Assembly: GCA_965224275.1 (NCBI GenBank)
Contig: CBDCYR010000002.1
Span: forward strand, 192,902-256,901
Source of the DNA: Alphaproteobacteria bacterium
GTDB taxonomy: Bacteria > Pseudomonadota > Alphaproteobacteria > SHVV01
Length of the DNA stretch: 64,000 bases
Reading direction: 5' to 3'
Shown: positions 42,144-47,505 of the stretch, piece by piece
Layout: the number at the start of each line of letters is the position of its first letter
Position numbering within the stretch: the first letter of the stretch is position 1
Position numbers and translations under genes: made by a program
Notes under the pieces: generated by a model
What the model was told of the DNA's origin: nothing
Databases searched by the model: none
Seen by the model: only the letters and a program-made list of their open reading frames with translations

Positions 42144-42767
42144 TTAGGAGTCGAAAACGCGACGAACGTGGTGGCTGAGTTCTTCGAGACGATACGGCTT
42201 TGAGATGAAGTTGACGTTTTCAGGATTGATGCCAAGTTTGTCGAACGTGGCATCGCTGTAGCCAGATGTGAACATCACCTTTAGCCCCACATGTTTTGCG
42301 GCAGCGATTTCGGCAAGGTCGGGCCCACTTATCCCGGCGGGCATAACGACATCGGTGAACAGCAGGTCGAAGTCTTCACTCTTCTCCAAGATGGCGACGG
42401 CTTCGGCACCGTCGGCTGCGGCGACGACCGTGTAGCCAAGGCCCGTTAGCAGATCGACCGATAACTCGCGAACGTCTGCGTCATCTTCGACAATGAGAAT
42501 CCGTTCACCTTCTCCCGATGCCTCCGAAAGTTTTTCGGTAGGCTGTTCAGCCGTCACTTCATCGCTAACCACGGGCAGATACACCTCGAACTTGGTTCCC
42601 TGGTCGCGATTGCTTCGGACGTTAAGAAAACCGCTTGATTGCGAAACGAACCCGTAAACCTGGCTGAGACCGAGCCCGGTTCCTTTGCCGACTTCCTTGG
42701 TCGTATAGAACGGATCGAAAATCCGGCTTAGGTCGTTCTCGGAGATCCCGGTTCCGGTATCTTCGAT
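42144..42767 (-). pseudogene. 3' fragment of a hybrid histidine kinase (HATPase_c tail + REC), separated by an IS1595-family insertion
   Basis: Host-derived sequence begins 'SIEDTGTGISENDLSRIFDPFYTTK...GTGLGLSQVYGF' and continues with REC 'ILIVEDDADV...LLFTDVVMPAG'. The upstream part of the listed ORF reads through the IS terminal repeat. Confidence 0.8.
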
Positions 42768-43806
42768 ACTGGGTATCCACTTCGCTCTCGTATCCCCTAC
42801 ATTTGGTTTCCGAGGCTGCGATGACCGCCGACTAGGCCCTTGTAGGGGACCGGCTCGTGCTGCACCGCCTGCTGGAGCAGTCGGAAGAAAAGCAGGCCAC
42901 GAGCCTGCGAACGGCGGCGATTGAATCGGAAAGTGAACTCGTCGAGATAGTAGTCGAGATGGTCGGCATCGATGGCACCATGGTGGATGCCCAGCCACCA
43001 GCGATCAAGCAGAGCGGCCACGCGATGCACTCGTGGCATGACGATGTGGGCCGGGTCGCCACTGGCGGAAATGGATCTCGGCTGGTGGTCATAGCCTTGG
43101 TTCGCCAGACCACTGTAGGCTGACCAGCCATCGGTTCGGACGGTCGCGCCAGGCGCCACGGTTGTTTGGACAAACGGGATCAGGCTCCTCGCAGCCACAT
43201 CCTCGACGCGGCTCATTCGGATCCGGCCAGTGCCCCGCCCTCGGACTTCCGCCGCAATCGCGACGATCGACTTGGTCTTCGTCTGTCGCCCCACGACGCC
43301 GGTTTCCCGGCCGCCCACATAGGTTTCGTCCACCTCGACCGCGCCGCCCAGGAGATCACGCCCCGGCCTCACCATGGCGCGCCGCAACTTGTGCAGCCAA
43401 GCCCAGGCGGTCTGATAACTGCCCAGGCCAAGAATGCGTTGCAGGCCGAGCGCACTGACCCCGTGCTTCTGGTTGGTCACGTACCACATCGCCTGGAACC
43501 AAAGGCGCAATGGCTTTCGAGTGCCCTCGAAGATCGTCCCCGCCGTCACCGATGTTTGACGCTGACACCGGTTGCATCGCAACTGACCCCGCGCCGTCGG
43601 CCAGGCGTCGGTTCCGCAGCAAGACGGGCATCGAAAACCTTCCGGCCAGCGAACACGCCCAAGAAACTCCGCACACGCCGTCTCCGACACGAACCACGCG
43701 TCGAATTCAGTCAGGGTGCGCGGGTAGTCGACCCCGCCTTCGGGATGGGATGCCGGGTTCGCCATCCCAACATATTGACATCACGAGAGCGAAGTGGATA
43801 CCCTAT
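42768..43806 (-). mobile_element. IS1595-family insertion sequence (1039 bp)
   Basis: Perfect 20-bp terminal inverted repeats 'GGGTATCCACTTCGCTCTCG' (42771-42790) and their reverse complement (43784-43803). An 8-bp target duplication 'TCTTCGAT' lies at 42760-42767 and 43807-43814. A single transposase ORF lies inside. Confidence 0.8.
42797..43765 (-). CDS. IS1595-family transposase (N-terminal zinc ribbon + DDE)
   Basis: 322 aa with 'CPSCCGTD...CNRCQRQ' and 'VEVDETYVGG'. Confidence 0.85.
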   Translation of the reverse strand: MANPASHPEGGVDYPRTLTEFDAWFVSETACAEFLGRVRWPEGFRCPSCCGTDAWPTARGQLRCNRCQRQTSVTAGTIFEGTRKPLRLWFQAMWYVTNQKHGVSALGLQRILGLGSYQTAWAWLHKLRRAMVRPGRDLLGGAVEVDETYVGGRETGVVGRQTKTKSIVAIAAEVRGRGTGRIRMSRVEDVAARSLIPFVQTTVAPGATVRTDGWSAYSGLANQGYDHQPRSISASGDPAHIVMPRVHRVAALLDRWWLGIHHGAIDADHLDYYLDEFTFRFNRRRSQARGLLFFRLLQQAVQHEPVPYKGLVGGHRSLGNQM

Positions 43807-44885
43807 TCTTCGATTTCCAACTTCACGAACTCGCCACGGGGTGGTTCGGCACCGAAGACCTTGGTGCTTCCATCTAGTTTGACCAGTCGGGTCGCGATGG
43901 TGAGACGGCCGCCATTCGGCATGGCGTCACGCGCGTTGACTGCGAGGTTGAGCAAGGCCGTCTCCAGGCCGCCAATATCGAGACGAGTTATGCATGGCTC
44001 ATCGGCAAAGCAAGCCTCGAATTCGATGTTCTCGCGCAGAGCTCTTTGCAGAATGTCCTGGGTCCGGGAGATCACCGTGTAGAGATTGACCACCTCGGAC
44101 TCTAGCGGTTTGCGCCGTGAAAATGCGAGAAGGCCGTTGGCCAATTCGGATCCACGCAACGTGGCTTTGACCGCCGTCTGCAATCTCTTGGCGACTTTGT
44201 CGCTCGCATCCTCGGCCAACAGTTCGAGATTGCCGAGGACGACGCCCAAAATATTGTTGATGTCGTGGGCAATGCCGCCAGTGAGCTTACCAAGGGCCTC
44301 CATCTTCTGGGCCTGGAGGAGATTCTCCTCCAACTCGGTTTGCACGGTGATGTCCTGAACGATCCCCTCGAGCCGGAGTGGTTGGTTGGACTCGTCACGG
44401 ATGATCCTCGCCTGCGAGTGAAGCACGCGCACCTGGCCGTCCTCAGCCTTGATGCGGAAGATCATATCGGCGGCGGGCTTCCCGGTTGCTAGTGCGTCAT
44501 CGATCGGGCGCGTCGCGGCTTGTCGTTCCTTCTCGTCAATCCGCCCCAGCAATACGTCGAGGGGGACCGAATCGGTTACCTCCGCAGATCCGAACAACAG
44601 AGAGGTTTGATTGAAGCAGCGAATGTCGTTCGAATCCGCGTCACGTTCCCATATGCCGAGCTTGGCAAGGTTTTGCGCCTCCGCGAGGCGAGCTTCGCTT
44701 GAGGCAAGTTCGTTGGTGCGCTCGCGCACCCGATCTTCGAGCGCATTACGCGACTCCTCGAGTGCTGCCTGCGTTTCCCGTCTTATCTCATTCTCGTGTT
44801 TCAGTTGGTCGTTGAGACGGATCAACGCCTCGCTGCGCGCTTGCAATTCTCCTGCTACGCGAAACGTTCGGCCGACAAAGAGATA
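43807..44885 (-). pseudogene. Central fragment of the same hybrid histidine kinase (TM remnant, coiled coil, PAS, HisKA, start of HATPase_c)
   Basis: '[31 protein letters not shown]' H-box and 'NLAVNARDAMPNGGRLTIA' N-box. The fragment ends 'VKLEIE' at the IS junction. Joining it to the 42767 fragment gives '...VKLEIEDTGTGIS...', a canonical HATPase_c. The listed ORF's first residues 'VNLIIA' are encoded by the terminal repeat of the second IS. Confidence 0.8.
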
Positions 44886-44946
44886 CGCGATTATTAAGTT
44901 GACATAAGAGGCGACACTCCCCATATGTTGGAAATAGGAGATCGCC

Positions 44947-45801
44947 ATGACCACGTTCTATCAATTCCAAAAGCAGTTTCCCGATGACGAAGCGTGCCTG
45001 CATCACTTGCTGGTGACGCGCTACGGTGGGACCGAGCTGGATTGCCCGAAGTGTGGCGCGTTCGGCAAGTTCTATCGCATGACGAAAGAGCGCGGCTACG
45101 TTTGCCAGCATTGCGGGCATCACCTGCACCCGACCGCCGGCACATTCATGCATCGGACGCGCCTGCCACTTCACAAATGGTTCTACGCGATGTTTCTGTT
45201 TTCGACTTCTCGTCATGGCGTGCCCGCGAAGGAACTGGAGCGGCATCTGGACATTTCCTATCCGACGGCTTGGCGCATGGCGCATGAGATTCGTAAGCAC
45301 ATGGCCGATACGGACGGGGAATGGCCACTGGACGGCGATATTGAAGCCGACGAAACCTATGTCGGCGGGCGCACAACTGGCGGGAAGCGCGGGCGCGGTG
45401 CTCCGAACAAGACCGTCGTATTCGGGATGCTGGAGCGTGGCGGCGACGTGATGGCAAACGTTATCCCGAATGTCCGTAAGCGCACCTTGCTTCCGATCGT
45501 TGCCGAGAATGTCGAGCAGGGCAGTACAATCCACACCGACGAACTTAGGTCCTACCGTGGCTTGGACCGGGCTGGCTTCAAGCATCGGACCGTGAACCAC
45601 AGCGCGGGTGAATATGTGAACCGGGGAAGCCACGTCAACTCGATTGAGGGCTTTTGGGCTCGTCTGAAGCTGTCGATCCGTGGGACGCACGTTCACGTTT
45701 CGGCGAAACACCTTCAGAAGTACGTGAAGGAGTTTGAGTATCGCTACAACCGCCGGAAGCGGCCCGAGACGATGTTCGGCGATCTGGTGGCCCGCTTCTG
45801 A
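44947..45801 (+). CDS. IS1595-family transposase (second, distinct copy)
   Basis: 284 aa with 'CPKCGAFGKF...CQHCGHH' zinc ribbon and 'IEADETYVGG'. Confidence 0.85.
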   Translation: MTTFYQFQKQFPDDEACLHHLLVTRYGGTELDCPKCGAFGKFYRMTKERGYVCQHCGHHLHPTAGTFMHRTRLPLHKWFYAMFLFSTSRHGVPAKELERHLDISYPTAWRMAHEIRKHMADTDGEWPLDGDIEADETYVGGRTTGGKRGRGAPNKTVVFGMLERGGDVMANVIPNVRKRTLLPIVAENVEQGSTIHTDELRSYRGLDRAGFKHRTVNHSAGEYVNRGSHVNSIEGFWARLKLSIRGTHVHVSAKHLQKYVKEFEYRYNRRKRPETMFGDLVARF

Positions 45802-45857
45802 GAGCACGGCGAAGAAGCGCGTCAAAGCGACGCCAAGCGATCACAGGCGGGTAGGTG

Positions 45858-46592
45858 TCATCCTTCATCCGGGTATTCCTTCTCCAACCTATAGAGCGCC
45901 CGTATCACCTCATCTGGGTCTTCGAGTTTCTCGGCCTCTCCGTAGAAATCCCACCACCAATCTTCGTCTTGATCACCGTTGAGTAGGCGATCCTTTTTCA
46001 GGGAGTAGGCAGCAAAGACCTCGCTTTCCGCTGTCTTGTGTGACGCGCTCCTAAAATCCCCATAAAGGTCGTCGACATCTATCTCCGTTGATGCCCTCAT
46101 GATGAGGCGGACTACGCGCCGCCCATTGCCAGGGTTAAGTTTTACGGCTTCTATATCATCGGGGACGCTTGCGGTTGGCTGTATCGAAGGCGGCGGTGTC
46201 GATGTTGTGCCGAAGTTGGGGCGTGCCCACATAAAGCCCCATTCCTCGTTCGACATTACCGCCCTTGCTCTTTTGATATCTCCTTGTTCCGCAGCGGAAA
46301 CAATAGGCGCAAGAAAAGCCCGCCATACATTCGGCCCCATCTTCTTCTCTGGATGAGGGATGTCAAGACGCCCAAGAATAGAGGATGCTCCTTCAATGGC
46401 TATCAAATGAATGTGCCTGTCGTATTTGGCGTCTGTGTAGTCAAAGTGTTGCCGTAGCGCCCGAGCATCGGCCCACAGCCCCACGAAGCTGAAAGGGCGG
46501 TACTTCCGCACACACTTCGGCATCATGCGCACCACGAAGGAGACCAATGGTGCAACCACGCCCGAGAGGCTGATCGGCACTTCAACAACCAT
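45858..46592 (-). CDS. Passenger ORF of the transporter-IS, unknown function
   Basis: 244 aa, with a possible later start at 'MMPKC'. Local GC is ~50-52% versus ~62% outside. It lies wholly within the inverted repeats. No recognisable catalytic or binding motif. C-terminal Trp cluster 'DQDEDWWWDFYGEAEKLEDPDE'. Confidence 0.6.
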   Translation of the reverse strand: MVVEVPISLSGVVAPLVSFVVRMMPKCVRKYRPFSFVGLWADARALRQHFDYTDAKYDRHIHLIAIEGASSILGRLDIPHPEKKMGPNVWRAFLAPIVSAAEQGDIKRARAVMSNEEWGFMWARPNFGTTSTPPPSIQPTASVPDDIEAVKLNPGNGRRVVRLIMRASTEIDVDDLYGDFRSASHKTAESEVFAAYSLKKDRLLNGDQDEDWWWDFYGEAEKLEDPDEVIRALYRLEKEYPDEG

Positions 46593-46639
46593 GCCAGCAG
46601 CGTATTGGTCGCATGGCTTATGTCAACTTGATAATCGCG

Positions 46640-47505
46640 AAGAGATATGAAAGGCCCGCGACCACCAGTAAAAGCAGAACAATCAATGGCGCGGTCGAAC
46701 GCAGAAAGTCCTGACCGGGAAGCATCGGCCGCCAAGTCAGTGTCGTGAGCTTGGTTCCACTGATGCCGTCGAGGCGGAGTGACGCGGTGGCGTCGGTTTG
46801 AGGGCTGTGGAAGCGAAGCCCGTTAAGCCCGTAGTTTGCCGCGAGCTTGGCGAGGAAGTCCGCGTCAACGCGTTTGAGCATGATCACAACAGCACGGTTG
46901 TCGATAGTTTGCTCAGCCTCGTCGTATGAAATGACACTCGCCGAGGCCAGGTGAACCGTTCCATCGAGCAGGAGAAACCCGGTCTTGGGCGTCGGTTGTC
47001 CCTTACCGTCGGACAGCCGTGCTTGCGACAGAAGCGCCTCCAAGCCGCGGCCAAATTTTCTCAGGTCAAAATCTAGCGCGTCTGTGCCATCGACCGACGC
47101 ATAGATAAGTTCGTTGTTGCCGGAAAGGACAACGCTCGTCGCAATGCCGAAATTGTCCGATAGATACGCGCCGAAATTGTGGGACGCCCACGATAGGTCG
47201 GGCTCGATGATGAGGTTCTGGATCGATTCGTCCCACCAGGTGTAGTCCAGGGTCAGCAGGCCCTGGTCGACTTCCATCTTCCGCAAGATCGATGTTGCGA
47301 GATTAACCGACGACGAAATCGCAATCTCATCTTGCTTCTTGGCAGCGACGAATAAGGTGAAGCCAATGGTCACAACCGTTATCAAGACCAGAAGGCCGAC
47401 CGGAATCAGCAGATTTCTTCGCGATTTCTCGACAAGATCTTTTGGTGAGACCAAGCCGCGGAGCGCGGTTAGAAATCCGTCGTTCACTGCTTCGCTGGCT
47501 GCCAT
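46640..47505 (-). pseudogene. N-terminal sensor fragment of the same hybrid kinase (TM - ~250-aa periplasmic domain, possibly CHASE4-like - TM)
   Basis: 'LLIPVGLLVLITVVTIGFTLFV' TM1 is followed by a periplasmic domain, then a second TM 'APLIVLLLLVVAGLSYLF'. This TM is cut by the transporter-IS. The tail 'AIIKLT*' is encoded by the IS terminal repeat. Joining it to the 44877 fragment restores '...GLSYLF|VGRTFRVAGELQ...'. Confidence 0.7.

Follow-up and report, generated by a model that had tools for sequence, protein, structure and literature searches.

The 64-kb stretch of DNA analysed here, which we refer to as the window, carries at positions 44886-46639 a complete, 1754-bp insertion sequence (IS) of the IS1595 family bounded by terminal inverted repeats (IRs). 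The left repeat (IRL; 44886..44908, + strand, CGCGATTATTAAGTTGACATAAG) and the right repeat (IRR; 46617..46639, - strand, reverse complement CGCGATTATCAAGTTGACATAAG) are 23 bp long and identical at 22 positions; the IR pattern occurs at two sites only in the window and gave 0 matches in 100 shuffles. The element is flanked by an 8-bp target site duplication, AAGAGATA, at 44878..44885 and 46640..46647. Between the repeats lie two convergent genes, one encoding a 284-residue transposase (44947..45801, + strand) and the other a 244-residue passenger, or cargo, protein (45858..46592, - strand, stop codon included). Their stop codons are separated by a 56-bp spacer (45802..45857) in which no intrinsic terminator was detected, the sole terminator-like match falling inside the cargo ORF. 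Repeats, duplication and both reading frames had been proposed in a preliminary description of this DNA, and all were confirmed. A 345-aa antisense ORF (44788-45825) was set aside, being presumed to be an artefact opposite the transposase gene of the sort commonly seen in high-GC DNA. A second IS1595 element, 1039 bp long, apparently recent and devoid of a second gene, lies 2 kb away.

The insertion sits precisely within a gene for a CHASE4-PAS-HisKA hybrid kinase, which it splits in two. The part encoding the N-terminal CHASE4 sensor, assigned through a Pfam match on the identical gene in another assembly (L013), occupies 46618..47505 on the - strand, and its frame enters IRR and terminates there. 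The PAS-HisKA part, downstream of the insertion, spans 43803..44954 on the same strand, with a mechanical ORF start inside IRL. When the element and one copy of the duplication are deleted in silico, the kinase frame runs continuously over the junction (...LSYLF-VGRTF..., the hyphen marking the junction) and the ORF is whole again.

The transposase and family membership

The transposase combines an N-terminal CxxC...CxxC zinc ribbon with a DDE domain, and profile searches bear out the IS1595-type assignment made in the preliminary description, with every match above its cut-off: PF12762 (6.9e-47, 159.7 bits; cut-off 27) and PF12760 (3.6e-09, 36.9 bits; cut-off 25.4) in Pfam, and NF033547 (1.4e-69, 234 bits; cut-off 75) in NCBIfam. 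Candidate catalytic residues, assigned by inspection of the sequence and alignments rather than by structure, are D135 (EADETY), D198 (HTDE) and E234 (NSIEGFW), with K241 seven residues beyond E234. Both aspartates are conserved in two alignments, and E234 and K241 in one of them. The element thus displays the features of the family, namely a zinc ribbon with an IS1595/ISXO2-type DDE domain, IRs with an 8-bp duplication, and a D, D, E triad with lysine at +7. A single transposase of the DDE/zinc-ribbon type acts on the 23-bp repeats, mobilising the 1754-bp unit in full and leaving 8-bp duplications behind.

The ends of the element resemble those of the ISNwi1 subgroup of ISfinder, which makes it a candidate member of that subgroup, a group further characterised by direct similarity to ISNwi1. 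The IR tip, CGCGATTAT, is similar to the end typical of that group, 'ggnnatTAT', and two relatives (L017 and L019) begin with GGGGATTAT. The arrangement E234-x4-R239-x-K241 likewise fits the group signature, DDEK with an arginine four residues past the glutamate. With its 1754 bp, the element is close to the lower limit of the 1750-4750 bp listed in ISfinder for passenger-carrying members. Transporter ISs of the IS1595 family, with an ISNwi1-type subgroup, are reportedly treated by Siguier, Gagnevin & Chandler in 2009 (Res Microbiol 160:232); in the literature that we searched, ISNwi1 returned unrelated mentions only. The element itself is of a known kind, an IS1595 transporter IS, with a passenger gene between the IRs of an otherwise IS-like unit. 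The transporter IS concept is restricted to the IS1595 and IS66 families (bioRxiv 10.1101/2021.05.26.445724; PMC3129680).

Recurrence of the element at other loci

In four other sequence variants of the element the passenger occupies this same position, in unchanged orientation. Three of these variants possess 8-bp duplications of their own, AACCACTA in L001, TACCATAT in L007 and TTTTGTTT in L008, the latter two variants having been found by a single-protein query of genome contigs. IRs therefore delimit the same unit of transposase and cargo at four separate targets, each with a duplication of its own, which excludes a single insertion as the origin of all copies and answers the question, raised in the preliminary description, of whether the same unit recurs with the same cargo. 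Taken together, it is almost certain that this is a transporter IS with a real cargo that is mobile as a unit.

Relatives of the cargo also ride with other members of the family, a point that the same description had suggested checking: they are found in a second IS1595 lineage (L006 and L017), the transposase of which is only 35% identical to that of the window. Nine of the 13 genomic contexts examined, with this second lineage represented among them, place the gene directly downstream of an IS1595-type end. Broader searches were less productive, with blastn of the element against PLSDB plasmids returning weak transposase matches only, tblastn of the cargo against plasmids and an exact-IR scan of JGI metagenomes giving no match, and pattern scans for the C-terminal domain of the passenger finding no relatives in JGI metagenomes or IMG/VR. 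Two candidate irregularities were rejected. An apparent truncation of the cargo in sister assemblies (132-aa calls in L014 and L015) reflects the start choice of the gene caller, the DNA being full length with 1-2 SNPs, and three-frame translations revealed no transposase fragment at the end of L020.

Composition and selection of the passenger gene

The passenger has 14 homologues in a 90%-identity clustered collection and 136 representative clusters in a 50%-identity library. Diverged pairs have a dN/dS of 0.16-0.24 in this gene, and the most similar pair one of 0.45, compared with 0.04-0.17 for the transposase among the element variants, and purifying selection on the cargo persists among variants that are saturated at synonymous sites. 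Protein identity among the variants is 51-86% for the cargo and 76-93% for the transposase, and the cargo protein diverges 2-5 times faster. Between the window and L007, dS is 0.15 for the cargo and 0.76 for the transposase, a discordance between the histories of the two halves. We conclude that selection maintains the passenger as a true part of this IS lineage; it is not debris.

The low GC content ascribed to the passenger in the preliminary description held in kind if not in degree. Its GC is 54.0%, rather than 50-52%, in a window of 59.9%, rather than 62%, with 5-kb flanks at 58.7-59.4%; this places it within the lowest 2% of 735-bp windows. At third codon positions the passenger has 58.8% GC versus 72.3% for the transposase.

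A two-module passenger protein

AlphaFold models of the passenger show two all-alpha modules. The N module (aa 1-125; 46218..46592, - strand) is a basic four-helix bundle of pI 9.7, preceded by a conserved hydrophobic N terminus with the pattern M-x-x-E-x-P-I-S-L-S-G. A disordered linker rich in proline, serine and threonine (aa 126-142) connects this bundle with the C module (aa 143-244; 45861..46166, - strand), an acidic helical-repeat domain of pI 4.4 modelled with a pLDDT >90, which contains a tryptophan cluster and the conserved motif N-P-G-x-G...R-L-I...F...V-x-A-A. Neither sequence landmark singled out beforehand fully survived comparison with the family: the histidine of 'RALRQH' is not invariant, and the C-terminal tryptophan cluster is partly conserved, with W212 and W213 present in only ~40% of C-domain sequences.

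The earlier impression that no motif could be assigned to a known family proved accurate: the protein matched nothing in Pfam, NCBIfam, PADLOC and PHROGs, none of which includes a model for the family. Family profiles against PDB sequences gave noise only (E > 0.5), Foldseek against the viral structures of BFVD gave nothing at E <= 0.001, and the fold matches of the model are generic helical ones. Likeness to TPR, HAT and PPR repeats is structural only (Z <= 7.5), the protein of the window having no Pfam match to these repeat profiles at E <= 1. An HPt domain was also considered for the N module; HPt domains carry a conserved phospho-accepting histidine on the second helix of a four-helix bundle, whereas the N domain has no invariant histidine, and a functional HPt was rejected. 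The N-terminal hydrophobic stretch was likewise rejected as a conserved membrane helix: only the copy in the window, at 1.93, passes the hydropathy threshold, most N-domain homologues checked scoring < 1.6. The family has no invariant catalytic residue or motif. Judged from the models, the passenger appears to lack an enzymatic fold and most likely acts by binding a partner, because of its fold and composition of basic bundle, disordered linker and acidic repeat domain. The expectation of a selectable, resistance-type cargo was thus overstated, since the protein looks non-enzymatic.

Putative promoters within the terminal repeats

Immediately upstream of the passenger we identified a putative promoter (46593..46626, - strand) with its -35 box, TTGACA (46626-46621), inside IRR, followed by a 16-nt spacer and a -10-like TACGCT (46604-46599). 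Only 6 nt (46598-46593) separate the latter from the passenger ATG at 46592, which leaves no room for a Shine-Dalgarno sequence and suggests that the mRNA would be leaderless. A generic sigma-70 promoter scan did not call this promoter, the -10 matching at 3 of 6 positions. The distance from TTGACA to ATG is 28-29 nt in 8 element contexts with differing intervening sequence, and 31 nt in L020. At the opposite end, IRL contains an inward-facing TTGACA (44899-44904), the likely -35 box of a putative transposase promoter, with CATATG (44922-44927) and TATGTT (44924-44929) as -10 candidates and AGGAG (44936-44940) as ribosome-binding site. This layout is conserved in L001, L003, L007 and L008, the last with TTGAAA-17 nt-TATAAT.

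From the conserved geometry, both genes would be transcribed inward from -35 boxes inside the terminal repeats, the transposase with a Shine-Dalgarno leader and the passenger leaderless, its ATG 6 nt past the -10. Transposase bound to the ends may repress both genes, and convergent transcription could let each gene dampen the other. IS elements with a transposase promoter in a terminal repeat, autoregulated by end binding, are established, as with InsA of IS1. The element described here resembles them in having an inward-pointing -35 box inside the IR, here at both ends, but differs in that a second, putatively leaderless gene is driven from the opposite end, and regulation by its transposase is a conjecture from this arrangement. 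What appears to be new is the two-module cargo together with the conserved, predicted leaderless promoter embedded in the repeat.

Module shuffling, neighbourhoods and alternative cargo

Sorted by module, the 168 collected sequences comprise 17 with both N and C, 31 with N only, 103 with C only and 17 with neither. Of the C-only proteins, 79 are extended N-terminally by at least 40 aa, and in 62 of these the extension contains a hydrophobic 19-mer, a predicted membrane anchor. Fusions of a TIR-like domain to C form 2 representative clusters. One of these fusions, P0007, matches PF10137 above the gathering threshold (25.9 vs 24.7 bits) as well as the PADLOC models PDC-S35 and TIR effector; PF10137 is confined to the distant C-domain relatives P0007 and P0014, and the protein of the window has no Pfam or PADLOC match to a TIR-like domain.

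Neighbourhood evidence comes from the 13 genomic contexts mentioned above. A gene for a NucS-type nuclease lies 4 nt upstream of the TIR-C gene, with a resolvase also present; other relatives neighbour an integrase, a resolvase and an SNase, a TrwC relaxase, an AAA_15/AAA_21 ATPase, or an MmeI-type restriction-modification gene 92 nt upstream, and the N-only homologue in L020 is flanked by PIN and Fic genes. Type II toxin-antitoxin systems pair a toxin of recognisable fold with an adjacent antitoxin gene, whereas the cargo gene stands alone and matches no toxin family; TA-like genes are seen in relatives only (Cas2/VapD-like in L019, PIN and Fic in L020).

Two annotated plasmid-borne IS1595 transporter ISs provide a further comparison, L018 (Sulfitobacter sp. 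W027, NZ_CP083567) and L019 (Geminicoccaceae SCSIO 64248, CP122394), with transposases 52% and 48% identical, respectively, to that of the window. As in the window, their IRs contain CTTGAC and the passengers are convergent with the transposase, reading inward from the far IR. The passengers themselves are unrelated to ours and match neither the N nor the C profile: L018 carries a membrane-anchored coiled-coil protein, and L019 a Cas2/VapD-like protein with a 198-aa partner.

Discussion

We tentatively propose that the passenger is a binding-type conflict module, serving defence, anti-defence or addiction and so helping either the host or the element. In this scheme the C domain could act as a shared recognition or regulatory module and the N domain as a lineage-specific output, because elsewhere the C domain is joined to membrane anchors or to a TIR-like effector domain. 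The conflict and mobile-element neighbourhoods of the relatives, the shuffling of modules and the presence of other cargo in the same slot all favour this proposal. Against it, the cargo matches no defence family described in PADLOC and is a single gene without a recognisable effector, the pairing of a membrane anchor with a soluble domain is highly generic, and the TIR-like fusions are few. The link to IS1595 ends in two lineages with transposases 35% identical would fit a role in transposition equally well. The best account of the locus as a whole, a transporter IS with a selected cargo, promoters in its IRs and a conflict-type function, is accordingly one that we favour without much confidence.

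On the main rival reading, which we consider unlikely, the passenger assists in transposition. Acting as a regulator, inhibitor or adaptor, and bound to the transposase, to the element ends or to a host factor, it would tune transposition or target choice in the way that second genes do in several other IS families. The position and orientation of the passenger are constant in every variant of the lineage, C-domain proteins occupy the same slot in the second, 35% identical lineage, an IS1595-type end is directly upstream in most contexts examined, and expression is apparently wired to the very IR that the transposase must bind; the predicted non-enzymatic fold and basic N domain would also be compatible with DNA or protein binding. 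However, most IS1595 elements, such as the 1039-bp one in the window, do without a second gene, this slot holds unrelated cargo in the nearest relatives with annotation, and outside ISs the C domain is found mostly on membrane-anchored proteins and sometimes joined to a TIR-like domain. The 2-5 times faster divergence of the cargo protein speaks against such a factor too, and the disparity in dS between cargo and transposase (window versus L007) argues against tight co-adaptation.

It is also possible, if improbable, that the passenger is neutral or host-beneficial freight, such as a signalling adaptor or a chaperone-like protein, that was captured by chance and kept between the IRs. This would accord with the lack of a defence or transposition family match in Pfam, NCBIfam and PADLOC, and transporter IS passengers have been described as unrelated to transposition (PMC3129680; bioRxiv 10.1101/2021.05.26.445724). 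Against it, the N domain has no invariant histidine and hence is no functional HPt, purifying selection and the conserved promoter wiring imply that the gene matters to the element, and family members have been seen nearly always at IS ends or among mobile and defence genes. Two further possibilities raised in the preliminary description, a spurious 244-aa ORF or the decayed remnant of another transposase, are suggested by the depressed GC and GC3 of the ORF and the absence of a Pfam or NCBIfam family match, but are contradicted so strongly by the 136 homologue clusters, a dN/dS well under 1, the confident model, the conserved start context and the complete lack of similarity to any transposase (Pfam, NCBIfam) that we dismiss them.

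Transporter ISs are the smallest known vehicles for genes other than those of transposition, and their passengers are mostly unannotated. One such passenger has now been shown to be a real, selected two-module family. It comprises ~136 clusters when grouped at 50% identity, is linked to IS1595 ends in two lineages that diverged deeply, and has an apparent leaderless promoter inside the terminal repeat. Should the proposed conflict function hold, ISs would be added to plasmids, phages and integrative elements as vehicles of defence or addiction functions, and defence-system discovery would gain a new domain. Should the passenger instead regulate transposition, it would be, to our knowledge, the first protein with an accessory role in transposition to be described in the IS1595 family. 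Under either reading the practical yield is a testable gene rather than a new principle.

In a more speculative extension of the conflict proposal, which we think unlikely to hold in full, the N and C modules would constitute an undescribed IS-borne conflict family, IS1595 elements would carry a swappable cassette of IR, leaderless promoter and cargo, and the acidic C domain would serve as a sensor or partner-binding module of a new kind, working with membrane, TIR-like and four-helix outputs in single-gene defence or addiction, with expression switched by the transposase at the IS end.

The modular make-up of the family can also be compared with that of the effectors of CBASS- and Pycsar-type defence, in which TIR or transmembrane modules are combined with a sensor. 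Unlike these, the C domain is an all-alpha repeat and not a SAVED or cNMP-binding fold, no cyclase or other signal-generating gene lies next to it, and the protein of the window lacks both a TIR domain and any convincing membrane helix. Like them, the family keeps a constant partner domain behind exchangeable N-terminal modules, which here are the N domain, a TIR-like domain of the CAP12/Pycsar type, or a stretch of one to two membrane helices as predicted from sequence.

Results

The evidence firmly supports an intact IS1595-family transporter IS at positions 44886-46639. Its 23-nt terminal inverted repeats (IRs; 44886-44908, CGCGATTATTAAGTTGACATAAG, and 46617-46639) agree at 22/23 positions and form the longest inverted repeat of the region; with 3 mismatches allowed, the pattern is found at these two sites only in the 64-kb window, with 0 expected from 100 dinucleotide shuffles. 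The octamer AAGAGATA abuts both ends as a target duplication (44878-44885 and 46640-46647), and in-silico loss of the 1754-bp element with one octamer leaves an open minus-strand frame (...LLVVAGLSYLF/VGRTFRVAGELQ...), so the insertion is precise. The product of the plus-strand gene at 44947-45801 is a 284-aa transposase that combines a zinc ribbon with a DDE domain of the IS1595/ISXO2 type and exceeds the curated cut-offs of three models, PF12760, PF12762 and NCBIfam NF033547 (1.4e-69 for NF033547). By inspection and from alignments, D135, D198 and E234 are candidate catalytic residues, with K241 seven residues past E234. The IRs and 8-bp duplication also agree with the IS1595 family, and the element may belong to the ISNwi1 subgroup of the ISfinder table (passenger-carrying members of 1750-4750 bp), judging by its IR tip CGCGATTAT and its E-x4-R-x-K motif. 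A 345-aa minus-strand ORF (44788-45825) runs antisense to the entire transposase gene and is a putative antisense-ORF artefact of GC-rich coding DNA.

The convergent passenger, or cargo, gene (45858-46592, minus strand) encodes 244 aa. The preliminary description had the coordinates and sequences of the IR pair and octamer right, and its call of an IS1595-type zinc-ribbon/DDE transposase is borne out by the three models. Its low-GC passenger is indeed low, within the lowest 2% of 735-bp windows, but the size of the difference was overstated, as GC content is 54.0% in the ORF, 59.9% in the window and 58.7-59.4% in the 5-kb flanks; GC3 is 58.8% in the passenger versus 72.3% in the transposase gene. 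The 64-kb window holds no further copy of the IR, nor of either domain of the cargo. The copy here is a single insertion that three further metagenome assemblies (L013-L015) share at the identical position, differing by 1-2 SNPs. When the element is compared together with 60 bp to either side, G to C at 46181 is all that sets it apart from L013 and L015; this exchange turns Q into E in the disordered linker of the cargo (SIQPT to SIEPT). In L014 there is one more SNP, at 45528 within the transposase.

Among 5.8 billion clustered proteins, 14 cargo homologues were retrieved, and a 9-sequence HMMER profile run on 1.84 billion representatives gave 136 clusters, 61 of them at E <= 1e-10; the family was absent from scans of JGI, IMG/VR and PLSDB, its source being almost only ENA long-read assemblies. 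Genomic look-ups revealed four further variants with the same layout of transposase, convergent cargo gene and same-type IRs. Their cargos are 86% identical to ours in the Alphaproteobacteria MAG OZ253470 (L007; target duplication TACCATAT), 69% in a metagenome assembly (L001; AACCACTA), 54% in metagenome assemblies with rearranged flanks and no target duplication (L003/L004), and 53% in the Rhodospirillaceae MAG OZ253551 (L008; TTTTGTTT), in which the IR has diverged to CG[TC][AT]A[CT]TATAACCTTGA.ACATCAA. The expectation that element and cargo recur together thus held for four variants, three with their own target duplications, and the four different duplications, ours included, firmly support at least four independent transpositions of the whole unit.

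In codon-level comparison of these variants, dN/dS is 0.16-0.24 for diverged cargo pairs and 0.45 for the closest pair, and 0.04-0.17 for the transposase. The cargo is therefore under purifying selection, yet its protein changes faster than the transposase (51-86% versus 76-93% identity between variants). A spurious ORF or a transposase remnant is excluded by the homologues, this selection and a confident structural model, and the passenger is conserved beyond its locus. Between the window and L007, dS is 0.15 for the cargo and 0.76 for the transposase, whereas for the window and L001 the cargo has the higher value (0.95, versus 0.40 for the transposase); this discordant history points to recombination swapping halves between related elements.

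The cargo has no match in Pfam, NCBIfam, PADLOC, PHROGs or PDB sequences. AlphaFold2, run with the family alignment, yields an all-helical model of mean pLDDT 75, in which a helical bundle (aa 33-120, pLDDT 80-90) is joined by a disordered Pro/Ser/Thr-rich linker (aa 122-139) to a confident helical-repeat domain (aa 143-240, pLDDT above 90 at aa 150-200). The domains differ in charge, with a pI of 9.7 for the N domain (basic) and of 4.4, at a net charge of -12, for the C domain (acidic). Invariant positions in the family are mainly hydrophobic, with D77, R91 and R110 in addition, and the top-conserved positions of the C domain are N153-P154-G155-x-G157, R162-L163-I164, F180 and V192-x-A194-A195. 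No His is invariant across the family, which rules out a functional HPt domain. That the cargo is a selected, two-module helical protein of non-enzymatic character is firmly supported; since nothing points to catalysis, it most likely acts by binding.

The two modules also occur apart. When separate N and C HMMs were applied to the 168 collected sequences (cluster members and transposases included), 17 carried both, 31 N only, 103 C only and 17 neither. One or two hydrophobic 19-mers, putative membrane anchors, precede the C domain in 62 of the 79 C-only representatives with at least 40 preceding residues. A TIR-like domain replaces the anchor in a few C-only proteins, of which P0007 scores above the gathering threshold of PF10137 (CAP12/Pycsar effector TIR; 25.9 versus 24.7 bits) and weakly matches PADLOC PDC-S35 and TIR effector models. 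In N-only proteins, a linker of similar type ('FGAPSPPPP') leads into C-terminal regions of other kinds, among them one that scores as a tRNA_anti-like OB fold.

An IS1595-type end lies directly upstream of the gene in 9 of 13 distinct contexts examined (the window, L007, L001, L003/L004, L008, L006, L017, L002 and L020). L006 and L017 represent a second IS1595 lineage, in which the IRs measure 31-37 nt, the transposase has 324-325 aa and just 35% identity to ours, and one or two small ORFs are added; L006 bears the N+C protein and L017 another N-terminus fused to the C domain. Within L006 2299-3166 and L017 2855-3274, one extra, conserved ORF of 139-147 aa (32% identity between loci, E 2e-17) ends in W-Q-I-S-x-K-x-L-x-x-F-F-F-G and found no family match; L006 has a third small ORF. 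L002 retains an IRR-like (right IR) end and has lost the transposase. At L020 (1650-2773), a 139-aa N-only homologue behind an IRR-like IS1595-type end stops just past the usual Pro/Gly/Ser-rich linker. It is flanked by a PIN toxin module on its upstream side and, some 55-70 nt downstream, by the start of a Fic-domain gene, whose product may be another partner for the N domain or may once have been fused to it. The remaining four contexts are mobile or defence neighbourhoods. A TIR-C gene starts 4 nt after a NucS_C-type nuclease gene in a locus with a resolvase (L009 4283-5864, L010 1112-2693), a two-gene unit that looks like a candidate defence operon; other relatives neighbour integrase, resolvase and SNase genes, a TrwC relaxase, or an MmeI-type restriction-modification gene 92 nt upstream.

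The nearest annotated transposases, on Sulfitobacter (52% identical) and Geminicoccaceae (48%) plasmids, likewise belong to transporter ISs with convergent cargo, but that cargo is unrelated to ours, being a membrane-anchored coiled-coil protein in the former and a Cas2/VapD-like protein with a partner in the latter. The Geminicoccaceae element (CP122394; L019 2417-4943, 2.5 kb, IR tip GGGGATTATCCCCTTGAC) encodes a 107-aa Cas2/VapD-like protein (PF09827 23.5 bits, below the cut-off of 23.8) and a 198-aa hypothetical protein, which may be a toxin-antitoxin-like pair on an IS.

Both IRs contain an inward-pointing TTGACA. Downstream of it on the transposase side come a -10-like hexamer and, 6 nt ahead of the ATG, AGGAG; L008 has a perfect TTGAAA-17 nt-TATAAT there. 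On the cargo side, the five variants of our lineage share TTGACA-16 nt-TA[CG]GCT-6 nt-ATG, a layout kept in L008 despite an entirely different spacer sequence, and L006 and L017 show TTGA[CA]A-17 nt-CACGAT-6 nt-ATG. From the putative -35 box to the ATG, eight contexts measure 28-29 nt and L020 31 nt. The start codon follows the putative -10 box by just 5-6 nt, too closely for a ribosome-binding site, so the cargo mRNA should be leaderless. A generic promoter scan did not call these putative sites, owing to their weak -10 boxes. The transposase has to bind the very repeat that contains the -35 box, so that its presence at the ends may repress both genes, and transcriptional interference would be possible between the convergent genes, between which no terminator was detected.

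Discussion

Transporter ISs, IS-like elements with passenger genes, have so far been described in the IS1595 and IS66 families only (bioRxiv 10.1101/2021.05.26.445724; PMC3129680), and passenger-bearing IS1595 elements are already a described class. New here are a protein family without a profile model, comprising about 136 clusters at 50% identity, together with its modular relatives, the fact that it recurs in two IS1595 lineages, and a conserved IR-embedded promoter geometry that is predicted to be leaderless; all of this makes the cargo a reasonable experimental target.

We tentatively propose, at somewhat short of even odds, that the cargo is a conflict-type binding module serving defence, anti-defence or addiction, given its swaps with TIR-like and membrane modules, its neighbourhoods, its faster protein evolution and the toxin-like cargo of sister elements. 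A regulator or adaptor of transposition is unlikely, even though the slot and the IR wiring stay strikingly constant across two lineages with transposases of only 35% identity. We also doubt that the cargo is unrelated freight, to which the want of a match to defence or transposition families and the HPt-like fold of the N domain would lend themselves.

The host gene (42144-47505, minus strand) encodes a hybrid sensor kinase with CHASE4, PAS_3, HisKA, HATPase_c and receiver domains (Pfam, annotated on the identical genes of L013-L015), a locus that seems to tolerate or attract insertions. It holds a second, 1039-bp IS1595-family element without a passenger (42768-43806), with perfect ~21-nt IRs (GGGTATCCACTTCGCTCTCGT), the target duplication TCTTCGAT (42760-42767 and 43807-43814) and a 322-aa transposase (42797-43765, minus strand; PF12762 at 1.4e-32) only 34% identical to that of the transporter IS. 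This element looks like a recent insertion, since L013 and L014 lack it at a locus that is identical in other respects. In L015, an IS21-type element (rve/Mu-transposase and IstB) lies in the kinase-gene region.
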